IMG/VR virus record: IMGVR_UViG_3300042691_038938
Origin: a virus
Lineage: Duplodnaviria; Caudoviricetes
Reading direction: 5' to 3' (one strand)
DNA length: 64,000 bases
In this document: positions 17,644-24,643 of the stretch, piece by piece
Position numbering within the stretch: position 1 is the stretch's first letter
Layout: every line of letters starts with the position of its first letter
Notes under the pieces: model-generated
The model's input: only the letters and a program-made list of their open reading frames with translations
Told to the model about the DNA's origin: nothing
Databases searched by the model: none
Position numbers and translations under genes: made by a program

Positions 17644-18815
17644 AATACTTAAGAATAAGTTATCCACAGCTTAGAACAGAGGTCTTGTCTGGGCTTACTA
17701 TCTCAACTGCGCTGGTTCCTGAAGCAATCTCATTTGCTCTACTCATTGGAGTGTCTCCAACTGCTGGTATATGGGCAGCCTTCTTCATGGCATTATCCAC
17801 TTCCCTTTTTGGAGGCAGGCCTGCCATAATAAGCGGTGCGACTGGCGCGACTGCAGTCATACTAGCGGCCCTTGTTTCTCTTCATGGAGAAGATAATCTA
17901 TACCTTGCTGTGATTTTAGCTGGAGTGATCCAGTTAATCTTGTGGATTAGCGGAGGTTGGAAAGTATTCAAGACGGTTCCTAAGATCGTAATTTCCGGAT
18001 TCCTAATTTCACTATCGATACTAATACTTCAAAGTCAATTCAAGTATTTTAAGATAGGTGGACTTTCGAGTATCCAACAGGTAATAATGGTAGGGATAGT
18101 TGTAGTATCAGCCGGCTCAATGTATGTTTCCAGTAAAAGATTCAAATTTCCTCCAGCAATCGCCGCAATATTGATGGGATCAGTTCTTAGTTCTTTCTTT
18201 GCTCTTCCTCTAATACAGGATCTTTCTGCTATATCAAATCGTTTACCTGAATTAGTCACTCCATCAGTTTCATTAGAGTCTTTATTACTAGTCTTGCCGT
18301 ATTCATTAGGTATGGCAATTTCCGGTCTTACTGAATCTCTAATCGCAGTAGATGAAGTCTGTCATAAACTAGGAACCCCAAAGGGAAAAGATCCAAAGTC
18401 TAAAGAAACCTTTGCTCAAGGCATAGGTAATATAGTGAGCGGCTTTTTTACTTCAATTGGAGGCTGTGTCCTCGTAGGTCAGACTAATTTAAACGTCGCA
18501 GCTGGCGCAAAATATCGAGTATCATCCCTAATTGCGAGCCTAGGTCTCTTATTGATCATACTCATTTTTGGAAAGTATATTCAGCTAATTCCTTTAGCTG
18601 GACTCATAGGAGTAATGATAATTGTAGTCTATGAAACTGGCGATTGGTCAAAACTTAAGGATAAAAATAGAGTAAATATAGCAACTCTTATCGTGACGAT
18701 AGCCGCTTCGCTAATCACTCACAATCTTGCGGTAGGAGTCTTGTTTGGAAGTATCACATACTACGCAATAAAAAAGTTAGTAAAGAATAATGGCAAAGAA
18801 AAAGATCGAGGATAA
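17640..18815 (+). CDS. SulP/SLC26-family anion (sulfate) permease lacking a STAS domain
   Basis: LSGLTISTALVPEAISFA, GGRPAIISGATGA, ETFAQGIGNIVSGFF, GGCVLVGQT; many hydrophobic segments. Confidence 0.88.
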   Translation: MKYLRISYPQLRTEVLSGLTISTALVPEAISFALLIGVSPTAGIWAAFFMALSTSLFGGRPAIISGATGATAVILAALVSLHGEDNLYLAVILAGVIQLILWISGGWKVFKTVPKIVISGFLISLSILILQSQFKYFKIGGLSSIQQVIMVGIVVVSAGSMYVSSKRFKFPPAIAAILMGSVLSSFFALPLIQDLSAISNRLPELVTPSVSLESLLLVLPYSLGMAISGLTESLIAVDEVCHKLGTPKGKDPKSKETFAQGIGNIVSGFFTSIGGCVLVGQTNLNVAAGAKYRVSSLIASLGLLLIILIFGKYIQLIPLAGLIGVMIIVVYETGDWSKLKDKNRVNIATLIVTIAASLITHNLAVGVLFGSITYYAIKKLVKNNGKEKDRG

Positions 18816-20661
18816 GTATCAAAAGCTAACAGATACTGAACACGTTCTTCTTAGACCCTCAATGTATATCGGATCAGTTGCGATCCACACCGGTGAGCAG
18901 CACTTATATGACGGTGAAAAGGTCTGGATAGAAGAAGTCAATTACAATCCAGGTTTCATAAAGATATTTGATGAGATCGTCTCAAACTCAGTTGACGAAC
19001 ACAGAAGAAATCCAAAACTAAACGAGATTAGAGTCACAATCGACCTAGATAAGGCCCATATCTCTATTTGGGACAACGGTGGAATCCCAGTTGAGAAACA
19101 TAAGGTCCACAAGGAATGGATCCCAGAGATGATCTTCTCAAACCTTAAGGCAGGATCCAATTTTGATGACTCAGAGCAGCGCACAGTCGCTGGAACCAAT
19201 GGAGTAGGGTCGACTTTAACTAACATATTCAGTAAAAAGTTCACGGTTTCAACCTGTGACGGCAAGAATCGCTTCGATCAGGTCTTTACTGATAACATGG
19301 GTAAGAGGACTGTTGCCAAAGTATCCCCAGCCAAGCGAGGATTCACAGAAATCTCATTCTTTCCCGACCTAGAGCGTTTTAAGATGAGAAGGATCGACGA
19401 AAAGTCCTTTGGAATACTCTTTAAACGTTGTTTGGACCTAGTTGCATGTAACAATAAGCTTACCCTAAAGCTAACTAAGATTCTGGACGGAAAAAAGAGC
19501 GATTTTGTGCTTAAATTTAAGAGCTTTGAGGAATATATTGCTCTCTACTCGCAAGATTACTTCTTTGAGGAGACTAAAGATTGGAAAATAGGTTTTGCAA
19601 GGTCAGAAAACGGCTTTCAAAACGTAAGTTTCGTCAATTCTGTTCATACTAAGGACGGCGGAACTCACGTTGAGTACATAACCAATCAGCTCATAGCCCA
19701 ACTGAGGGAAATGATCAAGAAGAAACATAAAGTAGACGTAAAACCTAGCGATATTCGTAATCATCTCTATGTTTTTATCGATTCTACGATAGTAAACTCA
19801 TTTTTTAGCTCCCAGACCAAGGAAAAGCTCATCACTGAGGTCAAGGATTTCGGAACCAAGCATGAAGTTACTGATAAGTTAGCAAAATTAGTGTTTAAGT
19901 CCGAAATAATCCAATCTGTGCTAGACTGGGTGGAGAAAAAGGCCCTAGCTCAAGAAAGAGCTGAGCTTCGAAAGCTAAATAAGGACTTAGACAAGACAAA
20001 AATCCCAAAACTGATCGACGCACAGAAAAAAGGTGATCGTGGACCTTGTATTTTAGGAATCTACGAAGGATTAAGTGCAGTATCAGCAGTTCGTAAGTTT
20101 AGGGACACTCAGACAATAGGTGCTTTCCCTCTAAAGGGTAAATTCATCAACGTAAGTGAGATGAAGAGCTCCGAAATCATTAAAAACGACGAAGCTGTGC
20201 AACTAATGGCCTCACTTGGACTAAAACTAGGAGAAGAGCCTAAAGGATTACGATACGGTCGCATCTATATCTATACTGATGCGGATCCAGACGGTAGCCA
20301 CATCGCTGCAACCCTAATAAACTTCTTCGATCGCTTCTGGCCGGAGCTTTTTGAGCAAGGTAGGGTCTACAAGGTGATGACTCCTCTTGTAGTGGCTAAA
20401 AAGGGTAAAGATTCCCTAAACTTCTACACCAATGAGGAGTTTGACGCTTGGGAGAAGAAAACCAAGACCTCAGGTTGGGAGATTGAGTACAAGAAGGGAC
20501 TTGGAGCCCTTGAGGACGCAGAATACGAAGAAATAATAAAGAATCCTTACTTAGTACAGATAAAGAACGATAAGGATTACAAGGGATCGCTAGAATCTTG
20601 GTTTGGGAGAGATTCTCAACCTAGGAAGGAAAAGATCCTCGGAAATAACGAAGAGAGATGA
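18790..20661 (+). CDS. DNA topoisomerase II ATPase/TOPRIM subunit (gp39+gp60-like)
   Basis: EHVLLRPSMYIG, EIVSNSVD, GTNGVG, EGLSA, PLKGKFIN, YTDADPDGSHI, YKKGLG. Confidence 0.95.
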   Translation: MAKKKIEDKYQKLTDTEHVLLRPSMYIGSVAIHTGEQHLYDGEKVWIEEVNYNPGFIKIFDEIVSNSVDEHRRNPKLNEIRVTIDLDKAHISIWDNGGIPVEKHKVHKEWIPEMIFSNLKAGSNFDDSEQRTVAGTNGVGSTLTNIFSKKFTVSTCDGKNRFDQVFTDNMGKRTVAKVSPAKRGFTEISFFPDLERFKMRRIDEKSFGILFKRCLDLVACNNKLTLKLTKILDGKKSDFVLKFKSFEEYIALYSQDYFFEETKDWKIGFARSENGFQNVSFVNSVHTKDGGTHVEYITNQLIAQLREMIKKKHKVDVKPSDIRNHLYVFIDSTIVNSFFSSQTKEKLITEVKDFGTKHEVTDKLAKLVFKSEIIQSVLDWVEKKALAQERAELRKLNKDLDKTKIPKLIDAQKKGDRGPCILGIYEGLSAVSAVRKFRDTQTIGAFPLKGKFINVSEMKSSEIIKNDEAVQLMASLGLKLGEEPKGLRYGRIYIYTDADPDGSHIAATLINFFDRFWPELFEQGRVYKVMTPLVVAKKGKDSLNFYTNEEFDAWEKKTKTSGWEIEYKKGLGALEDAEYEEIIKNPYLVQIKNDKDYKGSLESWFGRDSQPRKEKILGNNEER

Positions 20662-20771
20662 AATATCATAATGAACACCAAAGAGCTCCCAAATTTATCC
20701 TTATTTGGGTCATAATCCTAGTTGGATTCTTCGCTGGAATGACAGCAATCATCTCAACCGCAATAAAATAG
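20658..20771 (+). CDS. 37-aa membrane peptide (not in ORF track)
   Basis: MKYHNEHQRAPKFILIWVIILVGFFAGMTAIISTAIK; ATGA-coupled and fills the gap between the topoisomerase subunits. Confidence 0.5.
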   Translation: MKYHNEHQRAPKFILIWVIILVGFFAGMTAIISTAIK

Positions 20772-20777
20772 AGAAGA

Positions 20778-22151
20778 ATGGCAAAACCCATCATAAAAAC
20801 AGTAACTGACTACTTAGACAACGATTATAAGGAATATGCAGTCTATGTTGTCGAAGAGAGAGCAATACCTTCAGTGATTGACGGGTTCAAGCCCACTCAA
20901 CGTAAGGTGATATTCATTGCCAATAAGGTATGGAGAAACGGGAGTGAGAAACCACTAAAGATATTTCAGTTAGCCGGTAGAGTCGCAGCAGACGCCTTTT
21001 ATCACCATGGAGACGGATCCTTAAACTCTGCGATCATTGGAATGGCTCAAAGATTCAAAAACTCTATGCCTGTCCTAGAAGATATTGGACAGTTCGGTTC
21101 TTTGCGATCGCCGGAGGCGGCCGCTCCTCGATATATCGCAACTAGATTACATAAGAACTTTAGACTTCTATACAAGGACTTTGAGCTTCTTGAATCTAGA
21201 CACGAGGAGGGCAATGAGATCGAACCTAAATACTTTTTACCCATAATTCCTACTGTTCTCCTAAATGGAGGTAGCGGAATCGCAGTCGGCTTCTCAACCA
21301 ACATCCTAAATAGAAACCCTTTGCACCTAATTGATGCCTGCTTAAAGTCGCTGGAAGGTAAAAAATATACTGAGCCTGCACCATGGTATCAGGAATTTAG
21401 AGGAACATGTCAGCTATTAGATACTCCTGATGCTAAGTTCTCATGGCTATTTTCAGGCAAGTATGAGGTAAGGAACACATCCACTGTCACGATCAGCGAT
21501 CTTCCTCCTTCCGTTACCTATGAGAAGTTTGATCAATATCTAATAGATCTTGAGGATTCTCGTAGGATTGTGAGCTATGAAAACAACTGTAAGTCGAACA
21601 TAAGTTATACTATAAAGTTCAGAAGAGAGGACCTAAAAGCTCTTTCTGATTCTTCCAGGCTAAACCGATTCCTAAAGATGGAGGAGAAGCAGACTGAAAA
21701 CTTCACAGTATTAGATGAGTTCGGCAAGCTTAAAGTATTTACTTCAGCCAGTGAGATCATTGAGTATTTCGTCAGCTTTAGGCTCTCTTTCTACGATAAG
21801 CGTAAGCAGTACCTAATAGACAAAGCAGAACAAGAATTATTAGTCCTTTCAAACAAGGCCAGGTTCATCAAGGATATTATTGATGGCAAACTAAAGGTGA
21901 ACAATGTTCCTCGTAAGGAGATAGTTCTGTATTTACAGACTGCTGATTTTGATGAGGTAAACGGATCGTATCAGTATCTACTTTCTCTTCCTATCTATAC
22001 TCTTACTAAGGAGACGTATGAGGAATTGATCGAAGCTGAAAAGCAAAAAATTGAGGAAATCACTAGGCTAAAAGCGATGGAACCTAAACAAATGTATAGG
22101 GAAGATTTACAAGAATTGAAAAAAGCCCTACAAAAGGAGTATAATAACTAA
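20778..22151 (+). CDS. DNA topoisomerase II breakage-reunion subunit (gp52)
   Basis: RAIPSVIDGFKPTQRK, YHHGD, catalytic AAPRYI, GIAVGFST. Confidence 0.95.
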   Translation: MAKPIIKTVTDYLDNDYKEYAVYVVEERAIPSVIDGFKPTQRKVIFIANKVWRNGSEKPLKIFQLAGRVAADAFYHHGDGSLNSAIIGMAQRFKNSMPVLEDIGQFGSLRSPEAAAPRYIATRLHKNFRLLYKDFELLESRHEEGNEIEPKYFLPIIPTVLLNGGSGIAVGFSTNILNRNPLHLIDACLKSLEGKKYTEPAPWYQEFRGTCQLLDTPDAKFSWLFSGKYEVRNTSTVTISDLPPSVTYEKFDQYLIDLEDSRRIVSYENNCKSNISYTIKFRREDLKALSDSSRLNRFLKMEEKQTENFTVLDEFGKLKVFTSASEIIEYFVSFRLSFYDKRKQYLIDKAEQELLVLSNKARFIKDIIDGKLKVNNVPRKEIVLYLQTADFDEVNGSYQYLLSLPIYTLTKETYEELIEAEKQKIEEITRLKAMEPKQMYREDLQELKKALQKEYNN

Positions 22152-22154
22152 AAT

Positions 22155-22394
22155 ATGGCAGAATTCTCAAAACAATACTGTGAAAGAAAGTTTCCTGAGA
22201 TGCCAGGAGACTTTGATATCCTGGAAATGGCTAAGGATCTTTCTAACGGCAACTATGTTCCCATGATCTGTGAGGGTTATGGATTCATCGCTATAGGTAA
22301 GGACGAGACTGGATCGATAGTGCTCGCATTTCCTGAAGATTCTAACCCGACTCCATCAGCGATTTGGAAACCTTATGAGGAAGTCGTAGTTTAA
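22155..22394 (+). CDS. hypothetical protein
   Basis: 79-aa ORF in operon. Confidence 0.65.
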   Translation: MAEFSKQYCERKFPEMPGDFDILEMAKDLSNGNYVPMICEGYGFIAIGKDETGSIVLAFPEDSNPTPSAIWKPYEEVVV

Positions 22395-22410
22395 TAGAAA
22401 AACTTAAACG

Positions 22411-22677
22411 ATGAAGCTTCTTACTTTACTTACTTTTTTCACAAGCATGGGTATAGCCTTATCCCAGGAACCCATCATAAATGATTATGTCGTGGCTACG
22501 CCAGACAGATCTAAAGTCTGGATAATAAACAATCCGACTGGTCAATTAATATACGACAACTGGCAACAGAATCCAGAATACAATGGAATTAGGCCAAGTG
22601 TTGCCCTAGTTGAGGACCTGGAACCATATCGTAGGAGGGTAAAAAAGATGACTAAAAATTCTAAAAAAAGCAAATAA
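22411..22677 (+). CDS. small secreted protein (signal peptide, Gln at +1)
   Basis: MKLLTLLTFFTSMGIALS|QE. Confidence 0.6.
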   Translation: MKLLTLLTFFTSMGIALSQEPIINDYVVATPDRSKVWIINNPTGQLIYDNWQQNPEYNGIRPSVALVEDLEPYRRRVKKMTKNSKKSK

Positions 22678-22678
22678 T

Positions 22679-23107
22679 ATGACTATTGCACAAGCATTAA
22701 AAGAAAAGAACAAAAAGGTGACTAAGTTATCTAGTATGTGGGACAGACTTCAGCGTTACAACGTGGTGAATGAGGGAGAGGCTAAACCGTATACTAGCGA
22801 AAATACTTGGGAGGAGATCAATCGATTAACTAGCGAACTGATAGAATTAAAGACTAGAATTCATGCGGCGTCTGAGCCTGTTCGAGCTAAGATCTTTATG
22901 CTTTCTGAACTAAAGAGCAAGGCACAACGACTAAAGGGTATGAACACAAACAATGGAACCTATAGAGATCGTTATTCTGAAACAACTATCTCACAAGTAG
23001 CAGAGTTTGATGTGCTTTGGAAGGACGGAATGGTTGAACTTATCGAAATGGAAATAGAAACTATTCAGGAAGAACTAGATAAGTTTAACCATACAACGAA
23101 CATCTAG
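22679..23107 (+). CDS. coiled-coil protein, DIP1984/DUF6847-like
   Basis: MTIAQALKEKN start, long helices, ELDKFNHTTNI end (EL...N..T.I pattern). Confidence 0.55.
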   Translation: MTIAQALKEKNKKVTKLSSMWDRLQRYNVVNEGEAKPYTSENTWEEINRLTSELIELKTRIHAASEPVRAKIFMLSELKSKAQRLKGMNTNNGTYRDRYSETTISQVAEFDVLWKDGMVELIEMEIETIQEELDKFNHTTNI

Positions 23108-23300
23108 GGCGGGCCCAAGACTAGGGAGCGGACTATTAGTATGTGAAGCAGCAAAGCTTTGTACAACTTCTAGACTTTAAAGGATGTTAGATGGTGATTG
23201 TGAGGGTCAAGATTCAAGATTCATAATGGTTCAACACTCTTCTGTCAAACATCAAAACTCTGGATTACTTTTAGACCATCACTTTTCACGGGCTTGCCCT
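23106..23300 (+). ncRNA. candidate structured RNA / long structured 3' UTR
   Basis: Ends pair as an 11-bp stem (AGGGCGGGCCC 23106-23116 with GGGCTTGCCCT 23290-23300, two G-U pairs); clustered TCAA motifs at 23205-23260; strong terminator follows. Confidence 0.45.
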
Positions 23301-23311
23301 CCTATATATAG

Positions 23312-23339
23312 AAGAAGAGGATCTTTCGATCCTCTTCTT
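23312..23339. terminator. bidirectional terminator
   Basis: AAGAAGAGGATC-TTTC-GATCCTCTTCTT, 12-bp perfect stem between convergent units. Confidence 0.85.
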
Positions 23340-23341
23340 TG

Positions 23342-24271
23342 TTATAATATGATTTCTAAGATCTTTTCAGCGACGCTAATAAATTGATCACTAGTTAATA
23401 CTGGTTCTCCAGGCTGAGTCGAAACTAATGCATACACGATTCTGCTTCTATCTGAGATTCCTATTACTGCATGATCATCGTTATCGTTACTATCTCCTCC
23501 ATCGTCGTCTTCAAATTCGTGAGTTATGCCATCCGAACTTCCTGGAATCAAGATCAGGTGATTTATCGTAGGGTCTGTGTCCAATGGATCTTCCAAATTA
23601 GTCTTATAGAAAAGGGTCCAGCCAGGTATGACTTCTTCAATTGATCCGCCATTAACCGTGTCTTCATCTGAACCTACATTACCTGTTATCGAAAATTCTG
23701 ATACTGATGTATTGTCAGCAACCATCACAAAGAGTCCAGGATACATGTTTGTGAAGTACTTTGATCCTGGTCCAAAGTAAGAGTTTCCGTCGCTTACTAT
23801 ACCATCCATTGGAGGACTTGTGTATTCGTTCTCATCATCTTCATTATCAGCCTGAGTGTGAGTGTACGGTATGCTGGTTGCTGCTAATGGATTATCCTCG
23901 TCTATCCCACCTTCTTTAATGATATCATACAGATTAGTCAAGTTAGTGTTCAAGTAGTTTCCACCGTCGTACATATCGTCTCCTCCGTCGTTTATTCCTG
24001 GCAAAGGATCGCCAGTCTCCCCGCTCGTAGTGTAATCGTCCCAAAAAAGATAGATGTTCGGCACAAGAGCAGTGATTTCAGAATACTTAGCATTCAATTT
24101 ACTTAAAGCTAGATCTATCCACTCGCTAGTTTGGATTCTGCTGCCGCCTCCTACTCCTCCTTGAGCTTGAAGTCTCATGCGCATTGCTTGCTCATATAGA
24201 GCCTGTTGTTCAAAGAAAGATCGCAAGTCCTTTTGTTCTCTGCTCTCTTCTCCCCAATTTATAAATGACAT
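23342..24271 (-). CDS. acidic D/G-rich hypothetical protein, probably virion-associated
   Basis: 309-aa ORF downstream of the capsid genes on the same strand. Confidence 0.7.
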   Translation of the reverse strand: MSFINWGEESREQKDLRSFFEQQALYEQAMRMRLQAQGGVGGGSRIQTSEWIDLALSKLNAKYSEITALVPNIYLFWDDYTTSGETGDPLPGINDGGDDMYDGGNYLNTNLTNLYDIIKEGGIDEDNPLAATSIPYTHTQADNEDDENEYTSPPMDGIVSDGNSYFGPGSKYFTNMYPGLFVMVADNTSVSEFSITGNVGSDEDTVNGGSIEEVIPGWTLFYKTNLEDPLDTDPTINHLILIPGSSDGITHEFEDDDGGDSNDNDDHAVIGISDRSRIVYALVSTQPGEPVLTSDQFISVAEKILEIIL

Positions 24272-24280
24272 AATAAAAGA

Positions 24281-24643
24281 TTATTTTAGTGTAAGCAAGT
24301 ATTTTAGCTTATTTACTGCAGCAAGCAGCTCATCTCTCAGGTTTAAGAGATCACTATCTCGTTGAGGATTTAACTGATTATTAAGAGACAATAGGAAATC
24401 TGTAATAGTCTCTAAGAACTCATCCTGGTTCATCTCGCCGATGTTTGATAAGATAATTTGATCATCCTTTTCTACTGCAAGACGTCCATATTTTCCCATG
24501 TATATCTCTACGAAATCATCAGTCAGAGCGCTAAATGTATCGTATGCTTCTCCATATGCTTGGTGTCGTGCGTAGGATTGGGTCTGCCAGTGTAGTACTT
24601 TAAACTGTGACTGTATGCCCAAGAACATTGATATGATTGTCAT
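24281..24643 (-). CDS. ferritin/Dps-like protein (DUF5856-like)
   Basis: LHWQT..YARHQA...Y....D.FVE.Y.G.YGR and NLRDELLA..NKLKYLLTLK patterns. Confidence 0.75.
   Translation of the reverse strand: MTIISMFLGIQSQFKVLHWQTQSYARHQAYGEAYDTFSALTDDFVEIYMGKYGRLAVEKDDQIILSNIGEMNQDEFLETITDFLLSLNNQLNPQRDSDLLNLRDELLAAVNKLKYLLTLK

Follow-up and report, generated by a model that had tools for sequence, protein, structure and literature searches.

The locus examined here raises the question of what occupies the roughly 200 nucleotides (nt) that separate the stop codon of the open reading frame (ORF) at 22679..23107 from a strong terminator in the virus record IMGVR_UViG_3300042691_038938 (IMG/VR; Caudoviricetes). 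A 64,000-nt stretch of this record, referred to as the window, was analysed. An earlier note made from the sequence alone had pointed to this gap and proposed that it encodes a processed, structured RNA with repeated single-stranded motifs, which might serve as a protein sponge, as an antitoxin-like RNA or as a partner of the DIP1984-like protein encoded upstream. The gap is present and ends in an intrinsic terminator hairpin. The structured RNA encoded by positions 23102-23311 of the plus strand is non-coding and belongs to a large, hitherto undescribed family whose members measure ~165-210 nt; the observation lies well outside what chance would give. Together with the DUF6847/DIP1984-like protein whose gene it follows, the RNA appears to constitute a widespread, previously undescribed RNA-protein module with a probable circular RNA and a clear tie to RNA repair. 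The reading favoured here, which we judge rather probable, is that the RNA is excised and ligated, works as partner RNA to the DUF6847 protein when RNA is damaged and repaired, and was borrowed by phages.

Conservation of the RNA and its link to the upstream gene

In a first scan, all three viral contigs with the gene at 39% identity carry a non-coding stretch of ~190 nt after its stop codon. Common to the three are a G-rich 5' end and a C-rich 3' end that pair with each other, a run of UCAA motifs, and the words UACAACUU and GGUGAU. Scans with a protein alignment gave 80 loci from viruses, 80 from metagenomes and 29 from genomes. Where a locus extends far enough downstream, the element stands behind the stop codon in about 80 of 80 viral and in ~80 metagenome loci, the exceptions being truncated contigs or small insertions, and it is found in more than 150 phage contigs overall. 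It begins 0-10 nt after the stop codon and is followed by an intrinsic terminator or by transfer RNA (tRNA) genes. Relatives with 65-87% identity in the protein keep a gap of ~230 nt even where the downstream gene differs. Gene and element also occur in two huge phages of 462 and 595 kilobases (kb), and the element stands behind 26-33%-identical genes in genome bins of Victivallales/Lentisphaerae. The tie to the upstream DIP1984-like gene that the earlier note suspected holds across 26-100% protein identity.

The closing stem of the element, a long rod termed P1, has an entirely different sequence from clade to clade, yet pairs in each. Cognate ends pair better than shuffled or non-cognate ones (median -20.9 against about -14 kcal/mol), and do so in 75 of 102 cases. 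RNAalifold applied to five close relatives predicts 39 pairs, of which 14 have compensatory changes, whereas an alignment of all clades (MAFFT and RNAalifold) yields no consensus structure because the rod sequence differs completely between clades. A covariance model built on the five relatives (R1) picks up full-length elements of distant clades where they would be expected, and exactly one copy in each phage record of 67-207 kb. Covariation was counted on 21 diverse elements aligned to R1. The paired cells amount to 81.7% against 56.6% in shuffles (none of 500 shuffles reaches the former), the covariation score is 0.573 against 0.191 for shuffled sets and 0.05-0.11 with the partners slid, and double changes are found in 38 of the 39 pairs, among them all those of P1 and of the hairpin P2; these numbers are somewhat inflated since the alignment was fitted to the structure of the model. 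Homologous regions behind DIP1984-like genes do covary, a property for which the earlier note had suggested a test.

Several loci show variations around the junction of gene and RNA. An extra G+C-rich segment of ~118 nt lies between stop codon and element in L004 and L084. A short ORF with a CxxC...CxxC (zinc-ribbon-like) pattern is located between the DUF6847-like gene and the RNA in L030-L032 (about 1938-2125), and a tiny lysine-rich ORF (MAKGKTPKKEPKKAPKK...) takes this place in L226 (LR756511.1, about 930-1025), which belongs to the 595-kb phage. In L040, L071-L073 and L082 the RNA is directly followed by tRNA genes and no terminator, so that in those clades it may be co-transcribed and processed with the tRNAs.

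Architecture of the RNA

P1 encloses a loop of ~100 nt that contains P2 and tandem repeats of ~7 nt without a consistent helix (Table 1). The GC-rich, 11-base-pair (bp) end stem with two G-U pairs that had been read from the sequence is found as described, as the outer part of the rod. The sequence of P2 varies, with AUACC-UAU-GGUAU in L169, GAAC/GUUC in L171, and GAC/GUC, AUGGU/ACCAU and others elsewhere. The core consists of ~78 conserved positions with the consensus GAUGUAUGAUUAUGAUAAUGUUCAUUCAAAAUUCAAGAUUCAAGAGUUCAAAAAUUAAUAUGUCAAAACUUAAAACUC (79 unique elements). The highest averaged pair probability in the core is 0.13, with no consistent helix, and the two core helices of the covariance model are poorly supported (65-73% paired); the core is consequently treated as unpaired. 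This agrees with the earlier proposal of repeated motifs in a single-stranded region.

The clustered UCAA motifs are likewise real. The more general motif UYAA (Y, pyrimidine; R, purine) occurs 9.0 times per element against 5.4 in shuffles, and a spacing of 7 nt is by far the commonest, with 138 cases in the phage copies and 33 of ~60 in the Victivallales copies. The repeat unit is roughly U-U-Y-A-A-R-A, often UCAAGAU, of which the 5' half of the loop retains the GAU part and the 3' half the UYAA part. A second pairing suggested earlier, between GATGGT and ACCATC, is not supported. ACCATC is located at 23275-23280 as described, GATGGT lies at 23190-23195 instead of 23180-23185, and ACCATC forms part of the 3' strand of the closing rod. 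At these two sites close relatives have GAUUGU/ACUAUC and GAUUGC/ACUUUC and do not keep the pairing.

Without the terminator, the folding energy is weak (z = -1.9), and the case for the RNA accordingly rests on conservation, covariation and transcripts. The Rfam search that the earlier note had recommended was made with the Rfam 15 covariance models on 23100-23340 and returned no family at E<=10. On the Victivallales copies, Rfam gave only a chance-level match of MIR2606 over L189 (26.9 bits against a threshold of 139.7, E=3.6). No tRNA-like gene was identified in the window by ARAGORN. As identities for the RNA, 6S RNA, transfer-messenger RNA and an RNA with a tRNA-like 3' end were rejected, there being no model match and the window lacking the GCCC-A-CCA end of some clades. 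In that group (L005-L021 and similar) the rod ends in GCCC-(A/G)-CCA-UAC, like a tRNA acceptor with discriminator and CCA, at a place where the window has UCCUAUAU. This end hints at processing of the ribonuclease P type in that phage clade.

Table 1. Positions in the window of the RNA, its parts and the adjoining gene and terminator
Feature	Coordinates	Strand	Basis or remark
Gene of the 142-amino-acid helical protein (DUF6847/DIP1984-like)	22679..23107	+	RNA begins at or just before its stop codon
RNA seen in metatranscriptome contigs	23102..23311	+	Head-to-tail joined form, 201-204 nt
P1 rod, 5' strand	23106..23141	+	Fold, subclade RNAalifold, covariation count (helices 1-6); outer 11 bp AGGGCGGGCCC, 23106-23116
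P2 hairpin GAAGC-AGCAAA-GCUUU	23145..23160	+	Covaries (helix 7)
Conserved UACAA (YUACA) after P2	23162..23166	+	Alignments
GAU-repeat half of the loop (GAUG..GAUGGUGAUUGUGA), period 6-7 nt	23183..23203	+	Core consensus, 79 unique elements
UYAA heptad array	23207..23260	+	Ends in the near-invariant UCAAAACUC (23252-23260)
P1 rod, 3' strand	23264..23300	+	Fold, RNAalifold, covariation; outer 11 bp GGGCUUGCCCU, 23290-23300
Terminator hairpin	23310..23339	.	Intrinsic, 13-bp stem; shared by the convergent genes, outside the mature RNA

Transcription and apparent head-to-tail joining

Six river metatranscriptome runs contain about a quarter of the words of 22679-23345, and four of them were placed on 22300-23700 by means of Logan contigs. 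Each of these four runs provides one contig only, 200-231 nt long, which lies within 23102-23315 and differs from it at 0-1 positions. No RNA contig covers the upstream ORF or the downstream gene in the four runs, at the level of contigs. The RNA is present in the river RNA libraries as a discrete species of ~200 nt without the flanking genes, which bears out the discrete RNA suggested by the earlier note, and the missing coverage of the upstream ORF speaks against an RNA that acts simply as 3' untranslated region (UTR).

The contigs of three of the four runs contain a joint of the 3' end to the 5' end. In the X15 contig, 23303 is joined to 23103 (201 nt); in the X16 contig, 23305 is joined to 23102 (204 nt, with a 2-nt ambiguity); and in the X20 contig, a piece that ends at 23311 continues with GGCGGGCCCAAGACT, which is 23108-23122 (204 nt). 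The joint is not present in the DNA of the window, nor does this DNA contain a repeat able to give such joints. The simplest reading, at the level of contigs, is that a large share of the RNA is joined head to tail, i.e. circular. The joint would then sit in a small loop that caps the rod, ...GCCCUCCU(AU)|(A)UCUAGGGCGGG... The fourth contig, from X14, is linear, spans 23116-23315 and enters the 5' arm of the terminator, consistent with the appearance of a precursor. An endless reading frame around the circle was considered, 201 and 204 being multiples of 3, and was rejected as the frame of the 67-amino-acid (aa) ORF meets a TAA at 23178.

Bacterial copies and RNA repair operons

The Victivallales copies have GC-rich, perfectly covarying rods (GAGAAA.../...UUUCUC) and contain UGAUAUUGAUAA as their form of the GAU-repeat half, seven consecutive UYAA heptads, and CUCAAAACUUAAAACU. 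The gene is carried by 9 of the 301 sampled genomes of the Victivallales/Lentisphaerae phylum. The gene order in L188, L189, L191 and L197 is a divergent RtcR gene, the DUF6847-like gene, the RNA and RtcB. Gene, RNA and RtcB follow Ro60 in L198 and are also found in this order in L214 and L217, the latter at about 665 kb on its contig, and in L216 RtcR, the gene and the RNA are followed by an AAA/STAND NTPase. A canonical sigma-54 promoter, TGGCAC-N5-TTGCT, is located just upstream of the gene in L188-L191, L197 and L216, and about 320 nt upstream of it in L214. The full set of a divergent RtcR, a sigma-54 promoter and a downstream RtcB, by which an RtcR operon was recognised, is found in L188, L189, L191 and L197; L190 has the promoter, its neighbours being outside the scan. 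No RtcR/RtcB operon context is present in the phage window.

The Salmonella rsr-yrlBA-rtcBA operon has rsr and the Y RNAs yrlB/yrlA in this operon position (PMC4201824, PMC7790460). Of the roles put forward earlier, that of a partner of the upstream protein, here in the control of RNA damage, suits this context better than that of a classical antitoxin. The interpretation offered by the earlier note is partly supported, and the observation on which it was built is confirmed. The head-to-tail joined form, the 7-nt periodicity and the RtcR/RtcB repair-operon context go beyond it. A strong terminator-like hairpin is located between the RNA and rtcB in L189 (about 2160-2215) and in other Victivallales loci, so that rtcB may be expressed by way of read-through, as happens at loci where a ratio of RNA to protein is set.

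The DUF6847/DIP1984-like protein

The 142-aa protein encoded upstream of the RNA reaches 26.4 bits against Pfam DUF6847 and 35 bits against NCBIfam DIP1984_fam, which is under the respective cut-offs of 27 and 70. Many of its homologues carry PF20935. At least 159 close homologues were found, nearly all of 140-145 aa, and an exhaustive profile search of a 50%-identity library matched 1871 clusters at E<=1e-3. PHROGs contains no family for this protein. The AlphaFold model (predicted local distance difference test score, pLDDT, 90) shows helices packed as a bundle and one small beta hairpin, and its sole clear fold match is PDB 3KDQ (Foldseek, TM 0.71-0.81, probability 1.00), a C. diphtheriae protein of unknown function that shares this fold. 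The family alignment exhibits conserved Lys, Asn, Gln and Asp residues and no catalytic His kept across the family, which fits a binder better than a nuclease. The literature search found no mention of DUF6847, and DIP1984 is named in a single paper, in passing. The Pfam DUF6847 model also matches Deinococcus radiodurans, the classic Ro60/Y RNA organism.

Phage ligases, hosts and genomic setting

Matches to Rnl-family ligases were found in all five phage records searched. RtcB was found in none of the five (three of them complete), a result that does not prove its absence given the incomplete sources. A tblastn search of the window for Ro60 was negative, and one of the five phage records has a TROVE match, at about 127 kb from the RNA. 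This match (L201, G005:C1:186749-186970), in a related jumbo phage, belongs to a 583-aa protein with a TROVE (Ro60) domain. The gene was not found in any of 400 other Bacteroidota genomes, which points to the module being phage-borne in Bacteroidota. The bins with the module, and with them the probable hosts, belong to Crocinitomicaceae, Cryomorphaceae and other Flavobacteriales.

The source genome is that of a large lytic phage, a freshwater jumbo phage. Subunits of a T4-type topoisomerase II are encoded at 18790-22151, and a major head protein and a head protease are also encoded nearby. A blastn search against phage records returned no match. The RNA fills the gap between two convergent genes, the 142-aa protein gene on the plus strand and 23342..24271 on the minus strand. 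The latter encodes an acidic protein of 309 aa with no Pfam or PHROG match. It is missing in the relatives L166-L168, where a DUF5856 gene directly follows the RNA, and so is a variable insert at this junction. The DUF5856 protein of the window (24281-24643, minus strand; PHROG 858, annotated as a starvation-inducible transcriptional regulator) is encoded just before the major head gene and is kept in relatives.

Proposed mechanism and alternative explanations

In the favoured reading, the RNA would be cut from the 3' end of the transcript of the gene at the foot of P1, the rod would hold both ends together, and an RNA ligase would seal them into a circle of 201-204 nt. This ligase would be RtcB, encoded directly downstream, in the bacterial copies, and either a phage Rnl-family ligase or a host ligase in the phages. 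The circle, resistant to exonucleases, would present the repeat array as a multivalent single-stranded platform and would act with the DUF6847 protein as a ribonucleoprotein, for which we infer a complex of the two. Candidate roles of the array are to bind the DUF6847 protein, to soak up a ribonuclease or to splint broken RNA. The bacterial module would be switched on by RtcR and sigma-54 alongside RtcB upon RNA damage, and would occupy the place that Ro60 and Y RNA have in the Salmonella rsr-yrlBA-rtcBA operon. The pair of protein and RNA would have been taken up, without RtcB, by jumbo phages of freshwater Bacteroidota, in which it presumably helps to weaken or withstand the attacks of the host on RNA in the course of infection. 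A bolder version, which can be put forward only tentatively, is that the encoded circular RNA and the DUF6847 protein form a new damage-response ribonucleoprotein that acts as a resealable decoy or sentinel for RNA-cutting toxins and was captured by phages for counter-defence. Such a decoy would be self-renewing because a cut circle can be resealed.

A number of points weigh against the proposed excised and ligated partner RNA. About half of the Victivallales-type loci do not adjoin RtcB or RtcR and have unrelated neighbours, and RtcB was not found in the phages or in three candidate host bins, these being incomplete sources. The adjacency of gene and RNA is by itself no proof of a complex, and the covariation alignment had been fitted to the model's own structure. 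Circularity is read from Logan contigs of 3-8x depth whose runs possibly stem from one sampling campaign, and a few chimeric reads can turn a linear RNA into a cycle of the de Bruijn graph. The three junctions also differ (linkers AUAUCUAG, AUAUAUAG and UCUAG), and one run shows only the linear form.

These last points lead to an explanation that seems unlikely but that the purely linear X14 contig, running into the terminator, would suit, namely that the RNA is a linear, stable 3' UTR-derived RNA or a cis-acting stabiliser of the messenger RNA, with the wrap-arounds as artefacts of template switching at the paired ends or of graph assembly. The low depth and the heterogeneous junctions are compatible with this, as is the position of the element, which abuts the stop codon and the terminator in most loci. 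However, in three of the four independent samples the cycle is closed at almost one and the same position, with 0-2 nt shared at the joint. At a depth of 3-8x, a considerable part of the reads must contain the junction words, and in bacteria a ligase gene adjoins the RNA. Quite improbable is a decoy or sentinel for RNA-cutting toxins that acts alone, its UYAA heptads resembling an anticodon loop and thereby attracting anticodon nucleases or similar ribonucleases, and its cuts being resealed by RtcB or Rnl. The heptads, U-U-Y-A-A-R-A with 7-nt spacing in phages and bacteria, fit the pattern Y-U-NNN-R-A with the anticodon YAA (tRNA-Leu for UUR codons), phages counter tRNA-cutting defences (PMC7824862), and RtcR/RtcB operons respond to cleaved tRNAs (PMC7790460, PMC10159003). 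Since they have no closing stems, the heptads are not anticodon stem-loops; the pattern is a loose one in A/U-rich sequence, no nuclease was identified, and the strict linkage to the DUF6847 gene is left unexplained by a decoy of this kind.

It is very improbable that the RNA is a divergent Y RNA that binds Ro60 (Rsr). It does occupy the operon slot of yrlA/yrlB, has a long stem formed by its 5' and 3' ends, follows directly on Ro60 in one locus (L198), and in some phage clades starts with GGGCGA, reminiscent of the GNCGAA motif. Against this stand the lack of an Rfam match, Y RNA families included, at E<=10, the negative ARAGORN result, and the rarity of Ro60 itself, which is missing from most RtcR/RtcB loci and from the window and occurs far from the RNA in the single phage record that has it. 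Slighter still is the chance that the two form a pair of the type III toxin-antitoxin kind, with the DUF6847 protein neutralised by the repeat RNA. Phages mimic ToxI, and a small protein gene does adjoin a tandem-repeat RNA and a terminator here, but the order is protein then RNA, the repeats measure 7 nt and not about 36 nt, the helical bundle has no nuclease-like match and no conserved catalytic His, and the pair stands inside a damage-induced repair operon. That the stretch encodes a 67-aa protein at 23184..23387 has next to no likelihood and is refuted by the relatives: the frame is open in the window and is broken in relatives with 65-75% identity in the neighbouring gene, where 23, 13 and 0 aa are left, and its product has no Pfam match. 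The candidate is thus non-coding, as the earlier note had assumed.

If the proposed module is real, DUF6847/DIP1984, a family of ~1,900 clusters with a solved structure and no known role, would gain an RNA partner and a pathway. If the circle is true, the RNA would join the very small number of bacterial non-coding RNAs that are dedicated circles and would be, by the searches made here, the first conserved one in DNA phages, and RtcB would have a natural substrate encoded in its own operon. To our knowledge, the targets of RtcB in bacteria have yet to be settled. Freshwater jumbo and huge phages carry the module widely, and it likely bears on how these cope with host attacks on RNA. In the literature searched, no dedicated gene for a circular RNA that stands together with a protein gene is described, either from rtc operons or from phages.

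Comparison with known systems

Circles of tRNA introns are made by RtcB in archaea and metazoans. Further ligase-made circles are those of archaeal C/D box small RNAs, which are made by Rnl (PMC9014305), and Bacillus has a circular form of the small RNA DucS (PMC10504365). The RNA described here would resemble them as a small RNA joined head to tail, with a helix that brings the ends together and a ligase gene at hand. It differs in being the product of a dedicated conserved gene that stands with a specific protein gene in bacterial repair operons and in phages, and is not left over from splicing, nor is it the circular version of a small RNA already known. Many short single-stranded motifs on one stable RNA are also the hallmark of the sponge RNAs CsrB/RsmZ and CrcZ and of ToxI, and ToxI is likewise encoded beside its protein partner. 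The motif here is UYAA(GAU) with 7-nt spacing outside hairpin loops, and no CsrA, Hfq/Crc or ToxN partner is present. In ToxIN, tandem repeats of ~34-45 nt and a terminator are located upstream of the endoribonuclease toxin gene, whereas here the repeats are of 7 nt and the RNA lies downstream of the gene.

The RNA shares with 6S RNA a length of about 190 nt, a closing stem and a large unpaired central region. No 6S match was found in Rfam, however, and the unpaired region is a true terminal loop on one side and not a bubble between helices; the link here is to a repair operon and not to RNA polymerase. With viroid-like circles and Obelisks it has in common the small, apparently circular RNA, the rod-like stem and the cyclic metatranscriptome contigs. 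In contrast to these, it is encoded by a single-copy DNA gene, with no known ribozyme and no sign of a replicon.

The closest parallel is with Salmonella YrlA/YrlB and Ro60/Rsr, where a non-coding RNA likewise stands between the gene of a small RNA-associated protein and rtcB (PMC4201824; PMC7790460). That operon, too, is driven by RtcR and sigma-54. Y RNAs also close a large functional loop with a long stem of paired ends, which covaries here as P1, and also have copies in phages. In contrast to them, the RNA described here has no sequence or covariance-model similarity to Y RNAs and no tRNA-like T and D arms (ARAGORN, Rfam, core without helices). The Y RNA 5' motif is GNCGAAN0-1G (PMC4201824); the window starts with AGGGCGGGCCC, and the GGGCGA of some clades is a partial match only. 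A Ro60/TROVE neighbour was encountered only at the bacterial locus L198, the partner here being DUF6847, and the loop is a 7-nt repeat array on an RNA that appears to be circular. Although most of the features by which a Y RNA is recognised are thus missing from it, the RNA is most like a Y RNA in its workings, and in the Rtc operons it would, with its protein, be a second and unrelated counterpart to Ro60 and its Y RNA.

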